A stretch of DNA of 64,000 bases, from the NCBI GenBank assembly GCA_965204775.1, contig CBDBFH010000019.1, positions 4,394-68,393 of the forward strand, given 5' to 3'. The translations under genes were made by a program, and so were the position numbers. The notes below the pieces were generated by a model, which made no database searches, was not told the DNA's origin, and worked only from the letters and a program-made list of their open reading frames with translations. The DNA is from Alphaproteobacteria bacterium. Lineage in GTDB: Bacteria > Pseudomonadota > Alphaproteobacteria > JAPOUT01 > G958296285. This document shows positions 23,931 through 35,765 of this stretch, one piece after another. Every line of letters starts with the position of its first letter. The first letter of the stretch is position 1.

Positions 23931-24007
23931 GCGCCCGTAGCTCAGCCGGATAGAGCACCGGATTCCTAATCCGGGGGCCGCAGGTTCGAATCCTGCCGGG
24001 CGCACCC
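23931..24007 (+). tRNA. tRNA-Arg (anticodon CCU)
   Basis: GCGCCCG acceptor, D-arm UAGCUCAGCCGGAUAGAGCA, anticodon loop UUCCUAA, T-arm GGUUCGAAUCC, 3' CGGGCGC-A-CC. Confidence 0.9.
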
Positions 24008-24029: not shown

Positions 24030-25148
24030 ATGAACAACCTGACGCCGGCAGACGACTATCCGCTGCACCAGACCGCCGAGCCGATCGCTTTTGCCGGCGC
24101 GGACCGCAATTTTTACGACCGCTTCTTCTTCAACGGCTATGACGCCGGACAGGATGTCTTTTTTGCCGCGGCGCTGGGCGTCTATCCCCAGCTCAACGTC
24201 ATGGACGCCGCCGTCTGCCTGTCGCTCGACGGGACGCAATACAATCTGCGCGCCTCGAAAGACATGAAGATGGACAGGCTCAATCTTCAAGTCGGGCCGA
24301 TTCGGATCACGCTCGCCCAGCCGCTTGCCCGCACCCTGATTGAGGTCGCCGACAACCCCCACGGACTGAGCGGGCATCTGGAAGCGCGCGCGCGCCACCC
24401 GGCCATTGAAGAGCCGCGCTTCACCCGGCGCATCGGGCCGCGCGGATTTATGGATTACACCCGCCTTACGCAAAACATCAGCTGGCAGGGGTCGCTGACT
24501 CTTAAAGGGCGGAAAATCGATCTCACCGGCTTCCAGGGCACCCGCGACCGCAGCTGGGGGGTGCGCCCGGTCGGGGCAGCCGATCCGCAGCCGCCGTCCC
24601 GGGAGATGCAATTCTACTGGCTGTGGACGCCCGCCAATTTCGCCGGCCACGCCCTGTTCTGCCACAGCAACGACGACGCGCAGGGCGCGGCATGGAACCG
24701 GCGCGCCGTGCTGGCGGATCTGGCGCGGGGCGCGCAGCAGCAAACGCATTTCCGCCGCGTTGCGCTCAGCCCGGCCTACCAAAGCGGCACGCGGCGGATT
24801 GAATCGCTCGGCCTCGAACTGCGCGAAGGGGATCAAAGGATTGAGGCGCAGATGGAAGCGACCGGGCGGCTCTTCTATATGAGCGGGCTAGGCTACACCC
24901 ACCCGCACTGGTCGCATGGTCTTGATCACGGCGCGCTGGAGGTCGGGTTTGACGAGATGGAGCTGGACAAGGCGGAAGCGCAATTGCGCTCCGGCACGAT
25001 GCATCATCTGCATGTGCAGGCTCTGAGCCGGGTCGCGCTGATGCGGGGCGGGGAGCGCTATGAGGGGAGCGGCGTGATTGAGCAGTTGTTCATCGGCCCC
25101 CATGCGCCGAGCGGCTTTGCGGGGCTGCTCGACCGGATCACGGACTGA
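24030..25148 (+). CDS. hypothetical protein (372 aa), conserved-looking but unrecognised
   Basis: High-GC coding-like ORF immediately downstream of tRNA-Arg. Stop overlaps the next gene's start (TGATG). No motif I can name. Confidence 0.5.
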   Translation: MNNLTPADDYPLHQTAEPIAFAGADRNFYDRFFFNGYDAGQDVFFAAALGVYPQLNVMDAAVCLSLDGTQYNLRASKDMKMDRLNLQVGPIRITLAQPLARTLIEVADNPHGLSGHLEARARHPAIEEPRFTRRIGPRGFMDYTRLTQNISWQGSLTLKGRKIDLTGFQGTRDRSWGVRPVGAADPQPPSREMQFYWLWTPANFAGHALFCHSNDDAQGAAWNRRAVLADLARGAQQQTHFRRVALSPAYQSGTRRIESLGLELREGDQRIEAQMEATGRLFYMSGLGYTHPHWSHGLDHGALEVGFDEMELDKAEAQLRSGTMHHLHVQALSRVALMRGGERYEGSGVIEQLFIGPHAPSGFAGLLDRITD

Positions 25149-26188
25149 TGGCGGGGCTTCCCGATCATCCCGACAAATTTGATCCGGACTGGCTGGCGGG
25201 CAAGCTGGGGCGCGCGGCGGGGTCGCTGCGGGGCTGGACGCTTCAGCCGGTCGGCACCGGCCAGATGGGCGACAGTTACCGGCTGGTGCTGGACTGGGCG
25301 GGCGGGTCCGGGCGGCCGGCGACGATCATCGCCAAATGCCCGGCGGCGGACCGGCAAAGCCGCGAGACCGGGCGGCGGCTGCACAGTTATGAGGTTGAGG
25401 TGCGCTGGTATGAGCGGTTTGCGGCGCGGGCGAAGATTCGGGTTCCGCACTGTTATTTCACCCGGCTGGACGCGGCGGGCGATTTTGTTCTTCTGATGGA
25501 GGATGTCGCGCCGGCGCGGGCCGGCGACCAGCTTGCCGGGGGCACGGCGGCGCAGGTGCGTCTGGCGATTTCGGAGATTGCGCATTTGCATAATTTTCGG
25601 TGGAACGATCCGGCTCTGGTCGGGATTGACTGGCTGAATTACACGCGTGGCAACCGCGGATTTTTGCGCGAGTTTATTGCCCAGTGCTATCCGGAATGGC
25701 GGCGGCGCTATGCGGGTCGGCTTGACCGGGAGGTTCTGGAGATGGGGGCGGCGCTGGTGGCACGCCTTGAGCGCTATTTTGGCGATCGCGGTGCGCCGCT
25801 GGCGATCACCCACAATGATTTGCGTCTGGACAATATTCTGTTCACCGACGCGGCGGGGCGGGCGGTGATTGTTGACTGGCAGACGATTGGGGCGGGTGCG
25901 CCGATGAGCGATGTTGCCTATTGCATTGGGACCAGTTTTGCCGATCCGGCTTTGCGGGCGGGTGCGGAAGCGGGTTTGGTGGAGCATTATGTTTCGCTGC
26001 TGACGGGGTCCTATGATGGGGAGCGAGCCTGGCGGGATTACCGCTTTGGGGCCTTTGGCGGTTTTGTGATGGCGGTGGTTGCAGCCCAGCTGGTTGAGCG
26101 GACCGGTCGGGGTGACGAGATGTTTGCGGTGATGGCCGAGCGTTCGGGCTGGCAGGCGCTCCATCTTGACAGCCTCGCGCTGTTGTAG
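25148..26188 (+). CDS. phosphotransferase family protein (APH/ChoK-like kinase fold)
   Basis: Brenner motif HNDLRLDN and DW..IG (metal-binding D) typical of aminoglycoside/choline-kinase-like phosphotransferases. Confidence 0.75.
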   Translation: MAGLPDHPDKFDPDWLAGKLGRAAGSLRGWTLQPVGTGQMGDSYRLVLDWAGGSGRPATIIAKCPAADRQSRETGRRLHSYEVEVRWYERFAARAKIRVPHCYFTRLDAAGDFVLLMEDVAPARAGDQLAGGTAAQVRLAISEIAHLHNFRWNDPALVGIDWLNYTRGNRGFLREFIAQCYPEWRRRYAGRLDREVLEMGAALVARLERYFGDRGAPLAITHNDLRLDNILFTDAAGRAVIVDWQTIGAGAPMSDVAYCIGTSFADPALRAGAEAGLVEHYVSLLTGSYDGERAWRDYRFGAFGGFVMAVVAAQLVERTGRGDEMFAVMAERSGWQALHLDSLALL

Positions 26189-26238
26189 ATTGGAGCTAGC
26201 GCTGTTCAGAAGCTAACGCCCTGCCGACGGACAAACAT

Positions 26239-26274
26239 CAGCCGGATAGAGCATCGGACTCCTAATCTGGGGGC
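26239..26274 (+). pseudogene. decayed partial copy of tRNA-Arg(CCU) (D-arm to variable-loop segment only)
   Basis: CAGCCGGATAGAGCATCGGACTCCTAATCTGGGGGC matches positions ~12-47 of the intact tRNA-Arg at 23931 with 3 mismatches. The acceptor 5' end and T-arm are missing. A GC-poor sequence begins immediately downstream. Confidence 0.55.
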
Positions 26275-27050
26275 GTAAGTGGTGCCCTGTTAGATTGGGG
26301 ACGCAATGCCCATACTCCCACGCCTTTGCCCTCCGGCATGTAGAAGAGGTCTAGACCACCGCGATAGTTATCAGAGTCCGACGAATGATCCTCTAGGGTA
26401 CGTCGCACTACTGCCTCAAGTGTTCTGGGAACTGAACGCCCGGCGTTGCGACGCTCTTTCTTTATTTCGCGGTAAATGCTGTGTAGCGAAGCCTTCCCGC
26501 CGAGGTGCGAAAGGGTGGCCTTTACATCGTCGCGCCAAGTCACGGTCCCGTCCTCTCGAAACGTTTCATCAAACTCTCCAGTTCCTTCCGTATCCACCTC
26601 GCCTGTCGCTATTCCTCGTCTTGTTGCAATCTTCTTCGGGTCACGTAAATCGGCAACGGGCCGACGCCCGCTCAATTGATCACGGTAGAGCCAATTGACC
26701 CATGCGTTTTCAGTCTTTGCGCCTATTGCCCTGCTGAGCTCGTTTAGGCTCCGAAAGACACGTCCATCTCCTTGCAACACCCAACTGCCGTCACGAGCTT
26801 GCGCTCGATACTCAACCCCGAGGTAAGTGCGAAAAATCTCGAACCCTTGTGCGAAGTGGACACCATGCCGAGCGTCGTAGAAACCCATCCCTCCACTCGG
26901 CGGAGTCGGAGGGGCAGAGGAAGAGTCATCCCGCCTAGGTCCTTGGCAACCCAAGAATCTGTGCAGGATTTCATCCTCTGTGTTCTCATCCGCCCTCCTA
27001 AGGGTCCAGATTCTCGCGAACACGTCTGTCGAGACCTGAATGGCGCGCAT
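26262..27050 (-). CDS. hypothetical protein (262 aa) in low-GC insert; C-terminal region resembles Mrr_N/HARE-HTH winged-helix domain
   Basis: GC visibly lower than neighbours. The C-terminal SLHSIYREIKKERRNAGRSVPRTLEAVVRRTLEDHSS...GGLDLFYMPEGKGVGVWALR resembles the N-terminal winged helix of Mrr-type restriction proteins. The 3' end runs into the tRNA remnant, so the true C-terminus is uncertain. Confidence 0.5.
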   Translation of the reverse strand: MRAIQVSTDVFARIWTLRRADENTEDEILHRFLGCQGPRRDDSSSAPPTPPSGGMGFYDARHGVHFAQGFEIFRTYLGVEYRAQARDGSWVLQGDGRVFRSLNELSRAIGAKTENAWVNWLYRDQLSGRRPVADLRDPKKIATRRGIATGEVDTEGTGEFDETFREDGTVTWRDDVKATLSHLGGKASLHSIYREIKKERRNAGRSVPRTLEAVVRRTLEDHSSDSDNYRGGLDLFYMPEGKGVGVWALRPQSNRAPLTPPD

Positions 27051-27095
27051 TCTCTACTACCTCCATTTCCTCTCTTATAACTCCATATATATAGT

Positions 27096-27389
27096 ATGGA
27101 GGTGGGTAGGGTCAAGAAGAAACTTTCCGGGATTCTAGAGGTAGCAGAATCTCAAGTAATACACTATATACGCGAGCAATTTTGGCCTCCACAGCACAAA
27201 GCGGGGCTATTCGACAATTACTCAACGGGCTATGACGAACGCACGGAGAGGTTCCTTGAACGGTGTGTTCAGTATCTTCACCCGCGCTCATATAGCGCGG
27301 TTGACTTCCGCTACCCTCCACGCCTAGCGGCGGCACAGGCTACCGTTTTGCTCTTCGACTCATTTTACAATCGATGCAGGTCGCGATAG
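27096..27389 (+). CDS. small hypothetical ORF (97 aa) in low-GC insert, possibly a gene fragment
   Basis: AT-rich ORF divergent from 26262-27050. Its last ~8 codons overlap the convergent high-GC gene. No recognisable domain. Confidence 0.25.
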   Translation: MEVGRVKKKLSGILEVAESQVIHYIREQFWPPQHKAGLFDNYSTGYDERTERFLERCVQYLHPRSYSAVDFRYPPRLAAAQATVLLFDSFYNRCRSR

Positions 27390-30775: not shown

Positions 30776-32596
30776 TTGATGAGTCAGCTGGTCTGGACGA
30801 TCATCTTTGTCGCCGGGACTTTCGCGCTCTATATCGGGATTGCGGTCTGGGCGCGGGCGGGCTCGACCCGGGAGTTTTACGTAGCCGGGCGCGGCGTCCA
30901 CCCGGTGGTCAACGGCATGGCGACCGCCGCCGACTGGATGTCGGCGGCCTCCTTTCTGTCGATGGCCGGTCTGATCGCCTTTCTGGGCTATGGCGGTTCG
31001 GTCTATCTGATGGGCTGGACGGGGGGCTATGTTTTGCTGGCGCTTTTGCTCGCGCCGTTTTTGCGCAGTTTCGGCAAATTCACGGTGCCCGACTTTGTCG
31101 GCGACCGCTACTACTCAAACTGGGCGCGGGGGATTGCGGTGGTCTGCGCGCTGTTTGTCTCCTTCACCTATATCGCCGGACAGATGCGCGGGGTCGGGGT
31201 GGCCTTTTCCGGCTTTCTGGGGATTCCCTATGAGGCCGGGGTTCTGGCCGGGATGGCGGTGGTGTTTTGCTACACGGTTCTGGGCGGGATGAACGGGATC
31301 ACCTATACGCAGGTTGCGCAATATTGCGTTCTGATTTTCGCCTACACGGTTCCGGCGATTTTCATTTCGCTGATCATCACCGGCAATCCGGTTCCGCAGC
31401 TGGGCTTCATCTCCGATGTGCGGGGCGGCGGGGTTTCGATGCTGGAGAAGCTGAATATGGTTCTGCAGGATCTGGGCTTTCTGGAATACACCTCGACCGA
31501 CAAATCCATGCTTGACGTTCTGTGCATCACGGCGGCGCTGATGTTTGGGACGGCGGGTCTGCCGCATGTGATCATTCGCTTTTTTACGGTGCGCTCGGCG
31601 CAGGCGGCGCGGGTTTCGGCGGGCTGGGCGCTGCTGTTCATCGCCGCGCTTTACACGGCGGCCCCGGCGGTGGGGGCCTTTGCGCGGCTTAATTTTATCG
31701 ATTCGGTGAATGAGGCGTCCTATATCGCGGACGGGGAGGATTATGCGGCGCGGGCGGCGGAGATTCGGGCGGCGGGCGGCAAGCCGGTCCCGGAATGGTA
31801 CAAGTCCTGGGAGAAGACCGGGCTGGTCCGCTATGACGACCGCAACGGCGACGGGGTCATGCAGTATCGCGGGCCGGATGCGCCGGACGGGCTGGCCAAT
31901 GAGGTGGAGCCGAATCGCGACATTTTCGTTCTGGCCAATCCGGAGATTGCGCAGCTGCCGCATTGGGTGATTGCGCTGGTGGTGGCCGGGGGTCTGGCGG
32001 CGGCGCTTTCGACTGCGGCGGGGCTTTTGATGGTGATTTCTTCGGCGGTCAGCCATGACCTGTGCCGGCGGACGCTGTTTACGGGCATGAGCGACGCGGC
32101 GGAGCTGCGGGTTGCGCGGGCTTCGGCGGCGGGGGCGGTTCTGGCCGCCGGGCTGCTGGGGATTTACGCTTCGCAGCTGGGTTTTGTTGCGCAGGTGGTG
32201 GCGTTCGCCTTTGGTCTGGCGGCGGCCTCGCTGTTTCCGGTTTTGTTTCTGGGGATTTTCTGGAAGCGGATGAACCGGGAAGGGGCGATTGCGGCGATGG
32301 TGACGGGGCTGGCCTCGACCTTTTCTTATATTGTTTATTTCAAGTTTCTGGGGGGCGGGCCGGATCAATGGTTTTTGGGGGTGTCGCCGGAGGGGATCGG
32401 TTTTGTCTTTATGTGGCTGGCGCTGGGGGTTGGGGTGATTGTTGCGCTGGCGAGCGCGCCGCCGCCGCGGGCGGTGCAGGATCTGGTTGAGGAGATTCGC
32501 GCGCCCGGCAGGGCGGCCCCGACGCGGGGGGCGGCCCCGGCGCGGGGTGCGGCCCTGGCGCGGGGCGCGGCCCCGGCTCGGGGGGCGGCGGAATGA
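30776..32596 (+). CDS. sodium:solute symporter family transporter (ActP-like cation/acetate symporter subfamily), with repeat-rich C-terminal tail
   Basis: 606 aa, 13-14 TM helices, and SSS family motifs (GRGVHPVVNGMATAADWMSAASFLSMAG). The C-terminal ~30 aa consist of AAPxRG repeats. Confidence 0.85.
   Translation: MMSQLVWTIIFVAGTFALYIGIAVWARAGSTREFYVAGRGVHPVVNGMATAADWMSAASFLSMAGLIAFLGYGGSVYLMGWTGGYVLLALLLAPFLRSFGKFTVPDFVGDRYYSNWARGIAVVCALFVSFTYIAGQMRGVGVAFSGFLGIPYEAGVLAGMAVVFCYTVLGGMNGITYTQVAQYCVLIFAYTVPAIFISLIITGNPVPQLGFISDVRGGGVSMLEKLNMVLQDLGFLEYTSTDKSMLDVLCITAALMFGTAGLPHVIIRFFTVRSAQAARVSAGWALLFIAALYTAAPAVGAFARLNFIDSVNEASYIADGEDYAARAAEIRAAGGKPVPEWYKSWEKTGLVRYDDRNGDGVMQYRGPDAPDGLANEVEPNRDIFVLANPEIAQLPHWVIALVVAGGLAAALSTAAGLLMVISSAVSHDLCRRTLFTGMSDAAELRVARASAAGAVLAAGLLGIYASQLGFVAQVVAFAFGLAAASLFPVLFLGIFWKRMNREGAIAAMVTGLASTFSYIVYFKFLGGGPDQWFLGVSPEGIGFVFMWLALGVGVIVALASAPPPRAVQDLVEEIRAPGRAAPTRGAAPARGAALARGAAPARGAAE
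32513..32584. repeat. 18-bp tandem repeat x4 (GCGGCCCCGGCGCGGGGN) at the 3' end of the symporter gene
   Basis: Four near-identical 18-mers encode (A)APARGA repeats in frame. Confidence 0.8.
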
Positions 32597-32636: not shown

Positions 32637-33017
32637 TTATTTTTCGGAGTCCGGGGAAGCGGGGATGTGGAAACGGACGCCGAGGAGTTCGTCGAAGGGC
32701 GGCAGGGGCAATTTTTCCTCTTCGAATTCGAGGTTTTGGGGGGCGGGGGAGATGAGGTGGCTATAGCCGGATTTTTTGAGTTCCTCGCGGATAGCGGTGA
32801 GGAGGTTGCGGCAATATTCGTCCTCCAGGAGGCGGCAGAAGGTATTGAGGTGATCGGTGATGATATAGGGGGCGGATTTCCGGTAGTGCCGGGCGTAGTT
32901 GAGGGCGGCGTCCCGGATTTTACCGGGCGGCGGGGGGCGGGCGGATCGGGGCTGGAGGAAAACGCCGATGACAAAGCCAAAGAATCCTGCGCCGAGGAGA
33001 TAGGCGATGATGTCCAT
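32637..33017 (-). CDS. hypothetical membrane-anchored protein (126 aa)
   Basis: The N-terminal hydrophobic helix MDIIAYLLGAGFFGFVIGVFL is followed by a soluble domain. GC intermediate. No recognisable motif. Confidence 0.4.
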   Translation of the reverse strand: MDIIAYLLGAGFFGFVIGVFLQPRSARPPPPGKIRDAALNYARHYRKSAPYIITDHLNTFCRLLEDEYCRNLLTAIREELKKSGYSHLISPAPQNLEFEEEKLPLPPFDELLGVRFHIPASPDSEK

Positions 33018-33071
33018 TGTGGGCCTCCCGGTTCCCGGCGGGTCTGTTCCCGCGTTTATGTCAGGGTTGTA

Positions 33072-33113
33072 GCATATAAGTATCTACCACTCAAGGGGTT
33101 TTGATACTTATAT
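33072..33113. promoter_or_regulatory. perfect 12-bp inverted repeat CATATAAGTATC-N18-GATACTTATATG upstream of the XRE regulator gene (putative operator)
   Basis: Located 40 bp upstream of the XRE-family gene start in an AT-rich segment. A second short palindrome GGCCAT..ATGGCC overlaps the start codon. Confidence 0.45.
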
Positions 33114-33152
33114 GATGTCGCATATAGTCTACATTTCGGCCATGCAACCAAT

Positions 33153-33386
33153 ATGGCCGATCTGTTGTGGATTATCGGACGCCGGGTCTTCAAGTTCCGG
33201 AAAGAGCGGGAGTGGTCGCAAGAGCGGCTGTCTTTCGAGTCGGGCCTGCACCGCGCCTATATCAGCGGGGTCGAGACCGGGGAGCGGAACCCGACGGCCA
33301 AGACGCTGGCTAAATTAGCGAAAGCGCTGAGGGTCTCGCCCGCCGATTTACTGCCGGGCCACACCAGATGGACGCTTCCCGACTAA
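33153..33386 (+). CDS. XRE-family helix-turn-helix transcriptional regulator (77 aa; controller-protein-like)
   Basis: SQERLSFESGLHRAYISGVETGERNPTAKTLAKLAKAL is a canonical Cro/C1-type HTH. Confidence 0.75.
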   Translation: MADLLWIIGRRVFKFRKEREWSQERLSFESGLHRAYISGVETGERNPTAKTLAKLAKALRVSPADLLPGHTRWTLPD

Positions 33387-33444
33387 AACCAGGGGGTTCA
33401 AGGGGGACGAGTCCCCCTTGAGAAAGAAAACCGAAAACCCGCGC

Positions 33445-34077
33445 CTACCAGATATCCGGCTTGCGCAGTGGCGGGTTTCCCGGAACCGGATTGGGCAATT
33501 GGCAGACTTTCAAGACCCCGGTTCTGATCGGCTTCATACGATTATTGCTGGCTTCACGCAGTTGCCTGGACACATGCCAACGCCTTCTGACAGGCGCAAG
33601 AAGCATGATGGTTTTTTGGGAGTGCGCTTTTTTTGTCAATTCGATTGCCTCGGTAAAATCGCTGTCATTGGAAATAATCACAGCGCAGTCATATTCATCC
33701 CGCCAGCCATCATTTAACAGGTGAACGGCAAGATTGACGTCCGATCCTTTCTCCTCCGTCTTGATGACCCGCACCTTTTCCTGCGGATTATCCGCGCGAG
33801 GCATCCATCTTTTTTCACTCATGAAACTGCCATTATAAATCTCCAATTCCGGGATATGCCGCCTTAATGCAAGCCAGTAGATTTTCTGGCGTTCTGGCTG
33901 TTGAGAATCTCCTTCACGCGGCTTGACCGGAGCGGTGAAGAATTTAATCCTGTCCACCGCGCAGTCCGGGGGAAGCAGACGCAGGCAAAGTTTTTTCAGA
34001 TCAAGCCATTTATATTGGGTGTCTTTGAGCGCTCCATAATAAAGATTAAACCCGTCAACATAGACAAAGGTGCGCAT
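33445..34077 (-). CDS. NYN-domain (LabA-like, PIN-related) putative ribonuclease
   Basis: FVYVDGFNLYY start and EKGSDVNLAVHLLND ... DCAVIISNDSDFTEAI acidic motifs of the NYN/DUF88 fold. Visibly low GC. Confidence 0.75.
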   Translation of the reverse strand: MRTFVYVDGFNLYYGALKDTQYKWLDLKKLCLRLLPPDCAVDRIKFFTAPVKPREGDSQQPERQKIYWLALRRHIPELEIYNGSFMSEKRWMPRADNPQEKVRVIKTEEKGSDVNLAVHLLNDGWRDEYDCAVIISNDSDFTEAIELTKKAHSQKTIMLLAPVRRRWHVSRQLREASNNRMKPIRTGVLKVCQLPNPVPGNPPLRKPDIW

Positions 34078-34116
34078 CGCATAAGGCTCTCTACAATATT
34101 TTCAGGTGCGTCGCGA

Positions 34117-34150
34117 AAATACATCCCTAAAAAGCAGGGGCCCCCCGAAG
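34117..34150 (-). terminator. rho-independent terminator downstream of the monooxygenase gene
   Basis: On the minus strand: GGGGCCCTCTTCGGGGGGCCCC hairpin followed by TGCTTTTTA. Confidence 0.55.
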
Positions 34151-34274
34151 AGGGCCCCGCACCCTGAAGACGAAACAACAGGGGGTATCATTAATGTAAT
34201 AATGGGAGAAGTTGCATTTAAAGTCAACGTCTTTTTCAGGCGAATTTTCCTTGTTTTCCAAGGGTTTGCGGGCT

Positions 34275-35765
34275 TCAGGCGATCAGTTCGTAGTCGGCGA
34301 GGTTGACCGAGGACGTCGCCGCCGCGTAGTCGCGGGTGTGCGAAGACCAGTTCTGGGTGATCTTGCCCTGCGCGTTTTTGTACCATGAGGTGCAGTTGGG
34401 GTCGGCCCAGACGCGCGTGCGCAAATCCTTTTGCAGTTGGGCGTTGAAGCGGGCCTGGGCTTCGGGCGAGGGCATCAGGGCGCGGGCCCCCTTCTCTTCC
34501 AGAAGTTTCAGCGCCTTGACCGCGTAATTCACCTGATCCTCGATCATCACCAGAATCGAGTTGTGGCCCAGATTGGTGTTCGGCCCGTAGAGGACGAAGA
34601 AATTGGGAAAGCCGGAGACGGTGATTCCCAGATAGGCTTCCGGCCCCTCGCGCCAGGCTTCGGCCAGACGGGTTCCGGCGCGGCCCTCGATATCCAGCGA
34701 CCAGTGCCAGCCGGTGGTCTCAAAACCGGTCGCGCAGACCAGAACGTCCAGTTTGTGCAAACTGCCGTCTTGAATCTCGACCCCGTCGGGGACGATGCGC
34801 GTGATTTTTTCCGTCACCAGATCGACATCCTCGCGCAGCAGGCAGGGGTAGAAGTCATCCGAGAAGAGGATTCGCTTGCAGCCGATTGGGTAATCGGGCG
34901 TCAGTTTTTTGCGCAATGCGGGGTCGGAAACCTGCTCCTCCAGATGGGTTTTGGCGAGAAGCGTCTGAAAGTCGCGGCCCTGTTTGGTCCAGGCGAAGGC
35001 CTGCCAGAAAAAATGATCGGCGTTTTCATAGATCATCTGCCGGTTGGCCTGGGCGATGCGCAGGGCGGCTTCGGGATTGGTCGCCATCAGGGCTTTTTCC
35101 TCGTCGCTGATCGGGCGGTCGAGGCGGGGGACGACCCAGTTGGGGGTGCGCTGGAAGACGGTCAGATGGGCGGCTTCCTGCGCGACCTCCGGAATCAGCT
35201 GAACGGCGCTCGCCCCGGAGCCGATCACCCCGACCCGCTTTCCGGCCAGCGCCAGCGCGCGGTCCCAGCGGGCGGAATGCATCACCGGCCCGGCGAAGCG
35301 CGCCAGACCCTCAATGTCGGGCATGACCGGGCGATTGAGCTGGCCAAGCCCGGCGATCACCGCATCGGCCTCGATTTCGCCGCCCGAGGCCAGGGTCAGC
35401 CGCCAGCAGCGCGCGGCTTCGTCCCAGCGCGCCGCGCGAATCTCCTCGGACAGGCGCAGGCGGGGCTTGAGCTGAAAGCGCTCGACCACCTCCTCGGCAT
35501 AGGCCTGAACCTCGTCCGAGCGCGGAAACAGATGACTCCAGCGCCCGCTGGGCGCAAAGGAAAGATGATAGAGGGCGACCGGCACGTCGCAGGCGCAACC
35601 GGGATATTTGTTCTCGTGCCAGACGCCGCCGACTTTCGCGTTGCGGTCGAAGATCAGGAAATCGCCGATGCCGCTTTCCTTCAGCCGGGCCGCCGCGCAC
35701 AAACCGCCGAAGCCCGCGCCGATGATCGCCACGCGCAGTTTTTCATCAGGCTTTTTGCTCATCAC
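34275..35765 (-). CDS. flavin-containing / Baeyer-Villiger-type monooxygenase (NAD(P)/FAD-dependent)
   Basis: Two Rossmann motifs (VAIIGAGFGG and GKRVGVIGSGASA) and FMO-type spacing. 496 aa. Confidence 0.85.
   Translation of the reverse strand: MMSKKPDEKLRVAIIGAGFGGLCAAARLKESGIGDFLIFDRNAKVGGVWHENKYPGCACDVPVALYHLSFAPSGRWSHLFPRSDEVQAYAEEVVERFQLKPRLRLSEEIRAARWDEAARCWRLTLASGGEIEADAVIAGLGQLNRPVMPDIEGLARFAGPVMHSARWDRALALAGKRVGVIGSGASAVQLIPEVAQEAAHLTVFQRTPNWVVPRLDRPISDEEKALMATNPEAALRIAQANRQMIYENADHFFWQAFAWTKQGRDFQTLLAKTHLEEQVSDPALRKKLTPDYPIGCKRILFSDDFYPCLLREDVDLVTEKITRIVPDGVEIQDGSLHKLDVLVCATGFETTGWHWSLDIEGRAGTRLAEAWREGPEAYLGITVSGFPNFFVLYGPNTNLGHNSILVMIEDQVNYAVKALKLLEEKGARALMPSPEAQARFNAQLQKDLRTRVWADPNCTSWYKNAQGKITQNWSSHTRDYAAATSSVNLADYELIA

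Follow-up and report, generated by a model that had tools for sequence, protein, structure and literature searches.

Proteins with a RAMA domain (PF18755), of which MPND (7YDT/7YDW) and the C-terminal domain of CcrM (6PBD) have been solved, are among the closest described systems to the protein considered here. RAMA was defined through its fusions to N6A methyltransferases, restriction nucleases and SeqA (PMC4738411), and it is partly matched by DUF2924 (PMC11342252). MPND RAMA and HARE-HTH pulled down 6mA DNA in one study (PMC6591016); in a later structural study the 6mA preference of MPND RAMA was not reproduced, and binding to the DNA backbone was sequence-independent (PMC9963953). Winged helices fused to nucleases also act as 6mA sensors (PMC11037411). 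SeqA consists of an N-terminal oligomerisation domain and a C-terminal domain that binds hemimethylated GATC. The SeqA_N domain forms filaments. Classical RHH autorepressors (CopG, Arc/Mnt, omega of omega-epsilon-zeta, RHH antitoxins) are 45–100 aa in length, with a single domain or a toxin-binding tail, and known excisionases are small winged-helix DNA benders.

The window, that is, the whole stretch of DNA analyzed, has a length of 64,000 nt and encodes a protein of 262 aa that combines features of these systems. On balance, with slightly better than even chances, we take this protein to be a self-repressing, non-enzymatic, multivalent DNA-binding regulator left behind by a decayed tRNA-targeting integrative element. 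The gene and the parts of its product are as follows.

26262..27050, minus strand: family open reading frame (from the ORF list), 262 aa, ATG to stop; N-M-C family (RHH-like motif, RAMA-like domain, winged helix)
26943..27050, minus strand: N module, residues 1-36, RHH/SeqA_N-like (MRxIxVSTDVFARIW..GE.TED.IL.R.L), from sub-threshold Pfam matches and the AF2 model
26625..26897, minus strand: M module, residues ~52-142, RAMA-like alpha+beta (..FRxY.G..Y.A....G.W.L...G....SLN.LS..IG...ENAW.NW.Y), from Pfam and a fold match
26295..26549, minus strand: C module, residues ~168-252, winged helix H1-S1-H2-H3-wing, from the domain model and Foldseek
26265..26300, minus strand: C-terminal tail of 12 residues, PQSNRAPLTPPD, absent from the homologs in the alignment

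Every invariant residue is kept in the full-length alignment with 47 homologs, and judged by its sequence the ORF is a real, intact gene. An AF2 model of the full 262 aa (mean pLDDT 84) shows three confident domains with pLDDT values above 90, connected by disordered linkers with values below 50. The M and C modules each carry a net charge of +4, and the protein as a whole is only mildly basic (pI 8.7). No catalytic, effector or other enzymatic domain was found in the 262 aa by Pfam scan or in the AF2 model. An acidic auto-inhibitory linker as in MPND was considered and rejected; the linker is acidic here (-5) but this is not conserved family-wide.

The N module is the sole module common to all three architectures of the family (N-M-C, N-M and N-C). 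Pfam places DUF7557 on it in 15 of 48 members (best 3.8e-5) and 13 of 144 representatives, SeqA_N in 12 of 144 (best 4.2e-5), RHH_1 in 2 of 144 and VapB in 1 of 48; all of these matches for which a score is printed fall below their cutoff. The SeqA_N matches span model positions 1-36 of 36, so that the motif covers the whole model in these relatives, and the general logic is also that of SeqA: a small N-terminal self-association motif, a flexible linker and then one or more DNA-binding domains. The protein differs from SeqA in that it lacks the SeqA C-terminal domain and in that no GANTC enrichment is seen at the sites of the family gene; SeqA is a core gene, whereas the family gene is island-borne and sporadic, with hosts mostly among the Alphaproteobacteria. 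With the RHH autorepressors it shares a short motif at the N-terminus that is strand-helix-helix-like and whose turn reads G-x-[ST]-E-[DN], although the RHH models are matched below threshold only and two DNA-binding-type domains have been added. In the monomer model, residues 1-7 are extended and helices span residues 8-16 and 25-32, and the strand is not formed. From these resemblances we infer that the N module may dimerise and possibly reads DNA.

The M module matches RAMA over residues 74-136 (model positions 39-98; 13.6 bits, E 0.067). RAMA is also matched in 5 of 48 and 21 of 144 relatives, with a best E of 1.9e-7, and DUF2924 matches the same region in 16 of 144 (best E 9.4e-10). As for the N module, these Pfam assignments lie below the gathering thresholds wherever a score is printed, and no RAMA match with a printed score (13.3-21.3 bits) reaches the 35.2 bits required. 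The top PDB fold match of the full-length model is the RAMA domain of MPND in complex with DNA (7ydw_B; prob 1.0 with a weak E of 0.015), which aligns over 76 columns with a TM on target of 0.51. Because 7ydw_B does not rank in the top 50 of a search with the C domain alone, the match maps to the N/M part. Like RAMA proteins, the M module gives RAMA and DUF2924 matches on one stretch, has the typical motif in which a helix follows a beta-hairpin, along with an aromatic 'NAW.NW' segment that is conserved, and also occurs in mobile-element contexts (PMC11342252). It differs from them in that the 262-aa protein remains sub-threshold and has no PDB sequence match, and in that the module is neither fused to nor located beside a methyltransferase or nuclease; no RAMA-style fusion or operon with an adenine methyltransferase or restriction nuclease occurs in the window or recurs near the 18 full-length loci. 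The M module instead stands between an RHH-like N-terminus and a winged helix; we found no description of this architecture. The sequence-only reading had left the N-terminal ~190 aa unrecognised, a statement that falls because two further modules, the RHH/SeqA_N-like motif and the RAMA-like domain, are recognisable there.

The same reading had likened the C-terminal region to an Mrr_N/HARE-HTH winged helix. Its fold assignment holds: the region, of ~85 residues, is predicted to fold as a canonical winged helix (domain-only AF2 model, pLDDT 89, pTM 0.76), and Foldseek retrieves the winged helices of forkhead, H1, DpnI-C, ORC and SspB (TM 0.5-0.6, prob up to 1.0), with an RNAP-complex chain (8x6g_E) as only a mid-rank match. 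Membership in either named family does not. Mrr_N (PF14338, gathering score 29.5 bits) gives no match at E<=1 in the 262-aa protein and 47 homologs, no Mrr structure is among the Foldseek top 50 of the C domain, and hhalign aligns the two over 35 columns with a probability of 2.6%, the Mrr_N profile consisting of 2 sequences only. The single Mrr_N match among 144 members (P0234, residues 218-284, 33.6 bits) is separate from and downstream of the family winged helix at ~92-176, so that this protein carries the family domain and a true Mrr_N side by side. HARE-HTH (PF05066) is likewise unmatched in the 262-aa protein, in members scanned singly, in 48 members at E<=1 and in 144 members at E<=0.1, among the top 25 of 41 families. 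An extra helix in the HTH is said to typify HARE-HTH (PMC11037411); by DSSP, the C-domain model has three helices (8-18, 25-38, 47-57) and no fourth.

Both families share with the C module the winged-helix fold, a C-terminal 'G.W.L' hairpin and a place as terminal (N- or C-) DNA-binding modules in restriction-related proteins, but neither Pfam model recognises the C domain in the 192 family members. No other Pfam family covers it either, in the 262-aa protein or in the 48 and 144 members scanned, and PDB sequence searches with the protein, the family profile and two domain profiles returned noise only (a lectin heptad repeat, T4 lysozyme, V-ATPase). A Foldseek search of viral structures had no meaningful match. 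The C module has a family-specific sequence (W.DDV..AL..LGG.A.L..IY..V...R....RS.P....A.VR..LE.HSSDS..Y.GG.DLF....GKG.G.W.LR) and is thus a distinct winged-helix domain family without an existing model, which also occurs in tandem in HNH nucleases. Tandem copies are fused to HNH in P0229 and in a Priestia plasmid gene within a restriction island, and one relative has three copies ahead of an unassigned C-terminal domain. The C-terminal region of P0206 has no Pfam match; our impression is that it is PD-(D/E)xK-like.

The protein had been called an orphan. It is not, since the exhaustive profile search gives 1,555 protein clusters at 50% identity; 235 homologs are found at E<=1e-3, most with 95% length coverage and 45-59% identity. 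The family is large, unnamed, unannotated and mostly alphaproteobacterial. Among 264 proteins, 144 are N-M-C, 68 are N-M and 38 are N-C, and ~3 are fused to nucleases. The family is nearly absent from phages and plasmids. Searches of NCBIfam, PADLOC and PHROGs returned no usable matches. Two-domain relatives come first in mobile cassettes, where they overlap a HigB-like toxin gene by 4 nt or lie 27-59 nt upstream of it, a further likeness to the RHH autorepressors; N-M relatives are also found 6-13 nt upstream of large serine recombinases. First place in a mobile cassette is the position of a cassette regulator. No conserved partner gene is present at the family loci (18 full-length loci; 78 loci examined), and the neighbours at the 18 loci are mostly unrelated housekeeping genes.

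The composition of the two C-terminal modules raises the alternative that the protein reads modified DNA, the RAMA-like and winged-helix modules sensing a base modification such as N6-methyladenine in a protein without a nuclease. It might then regulate according to methylation state, shield DNA from modification-dependent restriction, or bind (hemi)methylated DNA in the manner of SeqA. The fusions by which RAMA was defined (PMC4738411), the 6mA pull-down with MPND RAMA and HARE-HTH (PMC6591016) and the 6mA-sensing winged helices of nucleases (PMC11037411) all fit such a role, as do the tandem family winged helices fused to HNH, once in a restriction island, and the three copies ahead of an unassigned domain. 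In the type IV sensors (the DpnI C-terminal domain, wH-HNH, PUA-wH-HNH), the winged helix is likewise canonical (PMC11037411), and the family sequence itself occurs as 2-3 tandem copies fused to HNH or to an unassigned C-terminal domain. The fold matches include the methyl-sensing winged helix of DpnI, the N module bears a resemblance to SeqA_N, and one relative has been named 'negative regulator of replication initiation' by JGI. The DpnI match is, however, no better than that to forkhead or H1, and a sequence-level link to DpnI is absent. The 262-aa protein has no nuclease, and nuclease fusions are a small minority of the family (~3 of 264). The 6mA preference of MPND RAMA was not reproduced (PMC9963953), methyltransferases and nucleases neither adjoin the gene here nor recur near homologs, and GANTC, the CcrM site, is not enriched upstream (0.44 versus 0.43 expected per 120 nt), with GATC only mildly enriched in full-length loci. 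We regard this alternative as unlikely.

The favoured explanation of a regulator left by an integrative element draws on the surroundings of the gene, which comprise the following features.

26189..27364, no strand: GC-poor islet, GC 0.54, lying between the stop codons of the genes on either side, which both have normal composition
26238..26274, plus strand: tRNA-Arg(CCT) fragment, positions 12-48 (D arm and anticodon arm, without acceptor stem and T arm), at one edge of the islet
23931..24006, plus strand: complete resident tRNA-Arg(CCT) gene (ARAGORN), direct-repeat partner of the fragment

The sequence-only reading had placed the ORF in a GC-poor insert, and both its coordinates on the minus strand and the dip in GC (0.52-0.56 versus about 0.65-0.70 around) are confirmed. 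The composition is foreign: the islet has a GC of 0.54 versus 0.674 for the window, and the gene has a GC of 0.558 and a GC3 of 0.551 versus 0.73-0.81 for the GC3 of its neighbours. Similarly, family genes lie ~11 GC points below their flanks in 16 of the 18 full-length loci. The neighbouring genes (an APH/EcKL-type kinase-like gene, a Haem_oxygenas_2 gene and a metallophosphoesterase) include no nuclease or methylase, as had been noted before. The flanking pair of a 372-aa ORF and the kinase-like gene is conserved, and the family gene is not found downstream of it in 80 of 80 related loci. No empty site was found, and no clean insertion junction can be drawn because the nearest orthologs of the kinase-like gene are ~58% identical and the downstream haem-oxygenase-like gene is not kept.

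The tRNA fragment of 37 nt is identical to 23942-23978 at 34 of 37 positions (E 3.6e-9 over the whole window), and it encodes the last codons of the PQSNRAPLTPPD tail together with the stop codon of the 262-aa ORF. The repeat is atypical in that it comprises the middle, not the 3' part, of a tRNA and is present at only one of the islet's two sides; the fragment is not called a tRNA by ARAGORN or Rfam, and the Rfam scan of the islet is empty. Other terminal inverted or direct repeats around the islet are short and at chance level. From the sequence match, the fragment is read as a relic att/tRNA junction that marks the edge of the islet. No integrase was found in 26189-27364, and the islet is called a relic because it has no integrase and because its remaining 220 bp have no translated similarity to the compared loci.

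Among the homologous loci, a 10-kb island (L006) bounded by perfect 47-nt repeats of a tRNA-Glu 3' end contains an integrase and the family gene, and in L020 the family gene stands alone between repeats of a tRNA-Met 3' end that are 1.29 kb apart. The gene lies 178-230 bp from a tRNA in L018 and L025, follows a tRNA-Thr and an integrase in L001, and is accompanied by an integrase in L007/8, in a P4-like satellite context with AlpA, Prim-Pol and a large helicase-like cargo. The islet is thus most likely the relic of a decayed tRNA-targeting integrative element. The earlier suggestion of a relic of a defence or mobile module survives in its mobile half, through the tRNA-Arg fragment and the tRNA-integrated islands of the homologs; the defence half is not borne out.

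These same contexts could suit an excision or recombination directionality factor, or an att-site architectural protein, kept after loss of the integrase. In L001 and L007/8 the gene directly follows a tyrosine integrase gene; in L018, L020, L025 and the window it sits at the edge of an island or tRNA, with att-like repeats retained in L020 around the gene by itself. The N-M relatives upstream of large serine recombinases, together with the winged helix of known excisionases, point the same way. Against it, ~14 of the 18 full-length loci have no recombinase within 3 kb, a protein of ~250 aa with three modules is unlike known RDFs, and the conserved repeats of the family lie at its own promoter rather than near integrase genes or att repeats within the 10-17 kb flanks. 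This makes a directionality factor quite improbable. The control region of the family gene contains the features below.

27088..27115, minus strand: putative sigma-70-type promoter read from the sequence (-35 TTGACC at 27115-27110, 16-nt spacer, -10 TATATA at 27093-27088)
27057..27066, plus strand: putative operator half-site CTACCTCCAT (ATGGAGGTAG on the gene strand), overlapping the Shine-Dalgarno GGAGG at 27060-27064
27081..27087, plus strand: putative inner half-site CTCCATA (TATGGAG on the gene strand), directly after the -10 and paired with 27096-27102 in a predicted hairpin
27096..27103, minus strand: putative half-site ACCTCCAT, located in the spacer between -35 and -10 and paired as an inverted repeat with 27059-27066
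27134..27144, minus strand: putative distal half-site CTACCTCTAGA, upstream of the -35
27096..27389, plus strand: 97-aa ORF, the 5' end of which is the promoter/operator of the family gene and the 3' end of which overlaps the neighbouring gene

The layout of a TTGAC, a spacer and a TA-rich hexamer is also present upstream of homologs; a stricter consensus promoter scan reported nothing at 27088-27115. The divergent 97-aa ORF had been taken for a fragment, yet it is not recognisable as a fragment of anything. It has no family match in four libraries and no homolog beside the 78 family loci, its product is absent from the protein collection, and over 27105-27364 no similarity to the compared family loci is seen, in nucleotides or in translation. 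It is probably not a gene.

The repeats are conserved and specific to the promoter. CTACCTCYA occurs twice in the 64 kb, both times at the family-gene promoter, with 0.16 occurrences expected and none of 100 shuffles reaching 2. The half-site CTACCTCCAT is conserved in L001, L009, L012 and L019, and both the window and these four loci have the ACCTCCAT/ATGGAGGT pair upstream of the gene; with ACCTCCAT also in L013, this amounts to six independent loci, the homologs concerned coming from five other genomes. The proteins of the loci that share the repeat are only ~55-60% identical, and in the homolog loci these 8-mers are, over 10-17 kb, virtually confined to the promoter of the gene itself. Three loci have tandem direct ACCTCCAT-ACCTCTA repeats, and other clades have different palindromes at the same upstream position. 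Upstream inverted repeats outscore at least 95% of same-locus controls in 19 of 65 loci, where ~3 are expected; the window taken by itself does not stand out, as 15% of control windows score as well as its best inverted repeat. Between loci, 0 to 29 nt separate the arms, a variation that a simple dyad operator would not usually show. Part of the conservation of the right arm has another cause, since that arm contains the Shine-Dalgarno. Within the ACCTCCAT group, no covariation was found between the beta-strand residues of the N motif and the operator type.

An inverted repeat of this kind could also act at the RNA level. In read-through or long-leader transcripts, an anti-Shine-Dalgarno arm would base-pair with the ribosome-binding site and hold translation down, which would make protein binding unnecessary. 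The right arm is the Shine-Dalgarno and the left arm its complement, the variable spacing of 0-29 nt would be tolerated as a loop length, and read-through into the family gene is possible because the gene upstream runs in the same direction. The left arm, however, falls inside the -35/-10 spacer at four loci (the window, L009, L012 and L019) and would therefore not be transcribed from the gene's own promoter. The fold of the RNA has a z-score of -1.55, 15 of 200 shuffles fold as well, and the minimum free energy structure lacks the pairing between the distal arm and the Shine-Dalgarno; the tandem direct repeats of three loci fit protein half-sites better. We consider control at the RNA level very unlikely.

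A self-repressing regulator accommodates these observations as follows. The RHH/SeqA_N-like N-termini would pair, and two disordered linkers would tether them to the RAMA-like domain and the winged helix, both net positive. The gene would carry its own promoter with four CTACCTCCAT-type half-sites, positioned upstream of the -35, in the spacer, after the -10 and over the ribosome-binding site; repeated half-sites that overlap the own promoter are a feature of RHH autorepressors as well. One of the modules would read the repeat, and the bound protein would repress its own transcription; from the position of the half-sites, the 262-aa protein probably shuts off its own promoter, and it may have targets beyond it. 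The family gene is a typical cargo of tRNA-targeting integrative islands in Alphaproteobacteria; in the window, a 1.2-kb relic of such an island would be left, made up of the gene with its control region, a tRNA-Arg fragment and ~220 bp of unique DNA, without an integrase. Against this reading, a regulator that controls only itself offers the host no obvious benefit.

The same anatomy might serve a nucleoid-associated or silencer-like protein of a mobile element that coats or bridges foreign DNA, as do H-NS paralogs, Rok and SeqA filaments, with an oligomerising N-terminus, flexible linkers and DNA-binding domains of low specificity doing the coating. The order of oligomerisation motif, disordered linker and DNA-binding domain parallels H-NS and Rok, the N motif resembles the filament-forming SeqA_N, backbone binding by RAMA is non-specific (PMC9963953), the gene is GC-poor and island-borne throughout, and the DNA-binding domain of Rok is a weak fold match (rank 34). 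The conserved, specific half-sites argue for sequence-specific binding instead, the low basicity of the protein (pI 8.7) speaks against coating, and oligomerisation beyond the presumed dimer lacks support; a silencer-like role is highly improbable. Least probable is a stand-alone anti-phage defence protein or the remnant of a restriction-type system, as the sequence-only reading had proposed: both C-terminal modules are of kinds that serve as DNA sensors in restriction enzymes (PMC4738411, PMC11037411), one N-M relative adjoins an Mrr_cat/NOV_C protein and the L007/8 gene sits among satellite cargo, but PADLOC-DB v2 has no match at E<=1, the 262 aa hold no catalytic or effector domain, conserved partners are lacking among the mostly housekeeping neighbours and the family hardly occurs in phages and plasmids, so that the protein gives no sign of being a defence system.

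An apparent orphan thus becomes a member of a very large unannotated family with a three-module anatomy and three recurrent architectures. The CTACCTCCAT-type half-sites at its own promoter provide a testable candidate DNA target for the family, and the gene is a candidate marker for tRNA-targeting islands and their relics in Alphaproteobacteria. A broader proposition, which we put forward as unlikely, is that N-M-C, N-M and N-C proteins are widespread, island-borne, nuclease-free 'readers', mainly of Alphaproteobacteria, that sense the methylation state of DNA to set the expression of their element or to shield DNA from modification-dependent restriction. Such a class would combine a SeqA_N/RHH-like self-association motif with one or two modules that serve elsewhere as modification sensors (RAMA, the wH-HNH-type winged helix). 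If this were true, the readers could tell newly arrived or newly replicated element DNA apart and would be a functional analogue of SeqA/Dam-type epigenetic control in lineages without it. If the RAMA-like domain and the winged helix do read methylation, the dispute over the biochemistry of RAMA could be settled in this family, as a simple bacterial system.

On the minus strand, the family gene occupies 26262..27050 from its ATG to its stop codon and specifies a protein of 262 aa, in agreement with the sequence-only reading. As that reading had noted, it lies in a GC-poor stretch, here a dip to 0.52–0.56 versus about 0.65–0.70 on both sides. Its composition is foreign: GC is 0.558 and GC3 0.551, against a GC3 of 0.73–0.81 in the neighbours, and the islet between the flanking stop codons (26189–27364) has a GC of 0.54 in a window of 0.674. 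The surrounding genes are ordinary by Pfam (APH/EcKL-type kinase-like, Haem_oxygenas_2, metallophosphoesterase). The divergent 97-aa ORF, earlier taken for a fragment, is most likely not a gene: four libraries gave no match, its product is unrecorded in the protein collection, and no homolog lies beside any of 78 family loci. The window has a second GC-poor islet (33000–34500, GC 0.48–0.55), perhaps likewise a small insert gained by horizontal transfer; it contains a 210-aa ORF with an NYN domain (33445–34077, minus strand; PIN-like nuclease fold, Pfam E 3.8e-10) and an adjoining 126-aa ORF with no family match. At the C-terminus of a 606-aa transporter-like ORF (30776–32596), a short peptide is repeated in tandem (window 32480–32596; APTRGAAPARGAALARGAAPARGAA), a sign that the DNA there may be repetitive and GC-rich.

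A 48-member alignment of the protein and its homologs shows three conserved blocks separated by variable stretches. The AlphaFold2 model derived from it (mean pLDDT 84) has confident folds at residues 1–37, about 52–140 and about 168–252, with disorder at 38–50 and 146–167; the pTM of only 0.44 fits domains that are independent of one another. The modules are as follows.

Residues 1–36: N module, motif MRxIxVSTDVFARIW..GE.TED.IL.R.L
Residues 52–142: M module, with RAMA and DUF2924 matches and the 7ydw_B fold match
Residues 168–252: C module, a winged helix ordered H1-S1-H2-H3-wing

The N module gives sub-threshold matches to DUF7557 (15 of 48 members, best 3.8e-5), to SeqA_N (12 of 144, best 4.2e-5, spanning all 36 model positions), and to RHH_1 and VapB, and its predicted structure is an extended segment with two helices after it. 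Ribbon-helix-helix folds, whose strand forms only in the dimer, have this pattern, and the N motif would dimerise the protein. In the M module, RAMA scores 13.6 bits in the window protein (residues 74–136) and is found in 21 of 144 relatives (best E 1.9e-7); DUF2924, which RAMA partly matches (PMC11342252), covers the same stretch (16 of 144, best 9.4e-10). Among solved structures, the full model is closest to the MPND RAMA–DNA complex 7ydw_B (probability 1.0, weak E of 0.015), which is missing from the top 50 of a search with the C domain only, and the match therefore belongs to the N/M part; the RAMA fold is unrelated to the winged helix (PMC11037411, PMC9963953). Modelled alone (pLDDT 89, pTM 0.76), the C module resembles the forkhead, linker histone, DpnI C-terminal, ORC and SspB winged helices with TM values of 0.5–0.6; the probabilities reach 1.0, but no E-value is below 0.065. 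Net charge is +4 for the M module and +4 for the C module, and the 262-aa protein has no catalytic domain. All three folds, and the logic of an island-borne autoregulator, are already familiar; no description of the RHH-like, RAMA-like and winged-helix combination was found in the literature, where Iyer et al. mention RAMA-SeqA fusions (PMC4738411).

The C-terminus had been likened to an Mrr_N/HARE-HTH winged helix. The winged-helix fold is borne out by the model and the fold matches, but membership of either family is not. Neither Pfam model matches the C domain of the window protein or, at E≤1, of 47 aligned homologs, and neither is among the families reported for that domain in 144 diverse representatives. 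Alignment of the C-domain profile with verified Mrr_N sequences by hhalign, in which the Mrr_N profile was shallow, gave a probability of 2.6%. As for HARE-HTH, the C domain is modelled with three helices and not the four described for that family (PMC11037411). Pfam has no model for the family's winged helix, the sole signal being a faint DUF7669. The single Mrr_N match is in the related protein P0234 (288 aa; residues 218–284, 33.6 bits versus a cutoff of 29.5), in which the N motif and the family's winged helix (~92–176) are joined by a separate, genuine Mrr_N. Because it carries both separately, the two are distinct domain families, here used side by side in one protein. The suggested restriction-type link stands in so far as the same winged helix occurs in nuclease fusions, but these are rare (about 3 of 264 proteins). 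P0229 has two tandem copies and an HNH nuclease, as does a 340-aa gene of Priestia filamentosa plasmid pBEH1 (L159, 6133–7155), whose island also holds dcm, restriction endonucleases and a DGQHR protein; P0206 has three copies followed by a ~200-aa C-terminal region with no Pfam match. All three are candidates for uncharacterised modification-dependent nucleases.

The protein is covered by no curated family, and yet it is far from the orphan it had been called. A word-indexed search returned 235 homologs at E≤1e-3, most of them of 236–262 aa with 45–59% identity and 95% query coverage, and all of them uninformatively named and free of Pfam annotation. When 1.84 billion cluster representatives were searched exhaustively with a profile, 1,555 scored E≤1e-3, of which 685 reached E≤1e-10 and 179 E≤1e-30. 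Domain-specific HMMs divided 264 retrieved proteins into N-M-C (144), N-M (68), N-C (38) and a few other architectures. The 64 family loci found in a scan of one genome per species are nearly all alphaproteobacterial (Rhodospirillales, Hyphomicrobiales, Rhodobacterales, Sphingomonadales, Caulobacterales, Kiloniellales), the others belonging to a few gammaproteobacterial MAGs and one Marinimicrobia MAG. The family is almost missing from viral contigs (3 loci), no member was found in sequenced phages, and the Priestia HNH fusion is the only plasmid match.

The 3' end of the family gene records a junction. A 37-nt stretch (26238–26274) repeats positions 12–48 of tRNA-Arg(CCT) with 34 of 37 identities (E 3.6e-9 over the whole window); the tRNA gene itself (23931–24006) lies 2.3 kb away. 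The fragment keeps the anticodon, has lost the acceptor stem and T arm, and encodes the last four codons and TAG stop (26264–26262) of the ORF. The 12-residue C-terminal tail PQSNRAPLTPPD is missing in homologs that end at 'WALR', and this together with the tRNA-encoded end places the junction directly after the winged helix. The stop is the reverse complement of bases in the fragment's anticodon loop (CTCCTAA, 26259–26265), so that the junction created the present C-terminus. The opposite side of the islet yielded no tRNA piece, and the remaining ~220 bp (27145–27364) resemble nothing else fetched.

Several homologs lie in tRNA-bounded islands or close to a tRNA gene. The edges of an intact island of ~10 kb in locus L006 (3517–13552) are perfect 47-nt direct repeats of the tRNA-Glu 3' end. 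Its integrase lies at one edge; inside are the family gene, a gene with a Fic domain and several ORFs lacking annotation. In L020 (1–1346), tRNA-Met 3'-end repeats of 50–56 nt, spaced by 1.29 kb, have only the family gene between them. This minimal islet is att-flanked, lacks an integrase and resembles a cis-mobilisable element; the locus begins at a contig end, and its left repeat may belong to a full tRNA. A tRNA lies 178–230 bp upstream of the family gene in L018 and L025, and in L001 a tRNA-Thr is followed first by an integrase and then by the family gene. Given this pattern and the tRNA-Arg fragment, the window copy is best read as the relic of a tRNA-targeting element, as the mobile-module suggestion had anticipated, although a fragment from the middle and not the 3' part of a tRNA is atypical. 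Exactly between the tRNA-Arg gene and the repeat lies a pair of genes with a one-base overlap (24030–26188, plus strand), encoding a 372-aa protein with no Pfam match and the APH/EcKL kinase-like protein; the pair could therefore itself be an older island inserted at tRNA-Arg. Of 80 related metagenomic loci, mostly marine, 38 keep the pair, and in none of them does the family gene follow it; in L083, tRNA-Thr lies 84 nt after the pair.

Full-length family genes keep no constant partner. Within 3 kb at 18 non-redundant loci, Phage_integrase is the one Pfam family that recurs (4 of 94 ORFs), and the remaining neighbours are unrelated housekeeping genes. GC is below that of the flanks in 16 of 18 full-length, 7 of 7 N-C and 28 of 39 N-M loci, with a mean deficit of about 11 points. 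Two-domain relatives are often the first gene of small mobile cassettes. N-C genes are found 3' of uvrB, sharing 4 nt with the start of a HigB-like toxin gene; in some loci N-M genes sit 3' of ruvB with the same toxin pair, and others are 6–13 nt upstream of large serine recombinases or adjoin an Mrr_cat/NOV_C protein. The toxin cassette comprises a two-domain relative (N-C or N-M), the toxin gene and an ORF of ~105 aa, three genes in all, and is inserted immediately 3' of DNA-repair genes (uvrB in L069–L072 and L061, ruvB in L049 and L065) in sphingomonads, Shimia and Rhizobiaceae; the 4-nt overlap is seen in three loci. In L007/L008 (3599–16662), the family gene has a P4-like satellite setting (AlpA, Prim-Pol, AAA_25, truncated integrase), with very large unannotated ORFs downstream (about 900 and 1,200–1,400 aa, faint helicase signals) that may be defence cargo.

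Upstream of the ATG at 27050, the control region reads as follows.

27144–27134, gene strand: distal half-site, CTACCTCTAGA
27115–27110, gene strand: putative -35, TTGACC
27103–27096, gene strand: half-site in the 16-nt spacer, ACCTCCAT
27093–27088, gene strand: putative -10, TATATA
27087–27081, gene strand: inner half-site, TATGGAG
27066–27057, gene strand: half-site over the Shine-Dalgarno (SD) sequence (GGAGG), ATGGAGGTAG

The layout of TTGAC, spacer and TA-rich hexamer recurs upstream of homologs. ACCTCCAT precedes the family gene in L001, L009, L012, L013 and L019, whose proteins are only ~55–60% identical to that of the window, and its inverted partner ATGGAGGT covers the ribosome-binding site in four of these five; within 10–17 kb at those loci, both are essentially confined to the family promoter. 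In the 64-kb window, CTACCTCYA has two copies, both at this promoter (0.16 expected; 0 of 100 shuffles reach two), and ACCTCCAT has four (1.03 expected), two of which form the repeat. Over all architectures, the best inverted repeat upstream of the gene outscores at least 95% of same-locus controls in 19 of 65 loci, where about 3 are expected. Other clades have different palindromes at the same position (CTACCTCTAG/GGAGGTAG, ATCTAGAT, CTATCTA, ATAGCA). Outside the SD zone, ACCTC-type motifs are present in 11 of 26 winged-helix-encoding loci versus 3 of 38 N-M loci (Fisher p=0.0017), which may reflect relatedness and not the reading module. In the window alone the repeat is unexceptional, with 15% of controls scoring equally well; the argument rests on conservation and promoter specificity.

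On the best-supported reading, the protein came with an integrative element, binds DNA multivalently as a regulator or architectural protein and represses its own gene; here it is a single-gene relic. What the data show is the domain anatomy, the family, the foreign composition, the tRNA fragment and the conserved repeats specific to the promoter. Beyond this, the protein would bind the putative half-sites at its own promoter, and this binding would repress its own gene; it may also have roles other than autoregulation. The main competing reading makes it a sensor of DNA modification: RAMA and similar winged helices have been proposed or shown to sense N6-methyladenine (PMC4738411, PMC6591016, PMC11037411). 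However, the 6mA preference of RAMA failed to reproduce (PMC9963953), the control regions show no enrichment of GANTC sites, and neither a methyltransferase nor a nuclease accompanies the family gene, as had been noted from the sequence. A role as excision factor is weakened because the repeats are missing near integrase genes and att sites. An anti-SD hairpin acting at the RNA level is less likely, as its left arm lies inside the promoter spacer, the RNA fold has a z-score of -1.55, and the distal arm does not sequester the SD in the MFE structure. For the proposed stand-alone defence protein there is no positive evidence, the 18 loci having no conserved partner. The chief value of the finding is a large family that has so far gone without annotation and whose DNA target is precise and open to testing.
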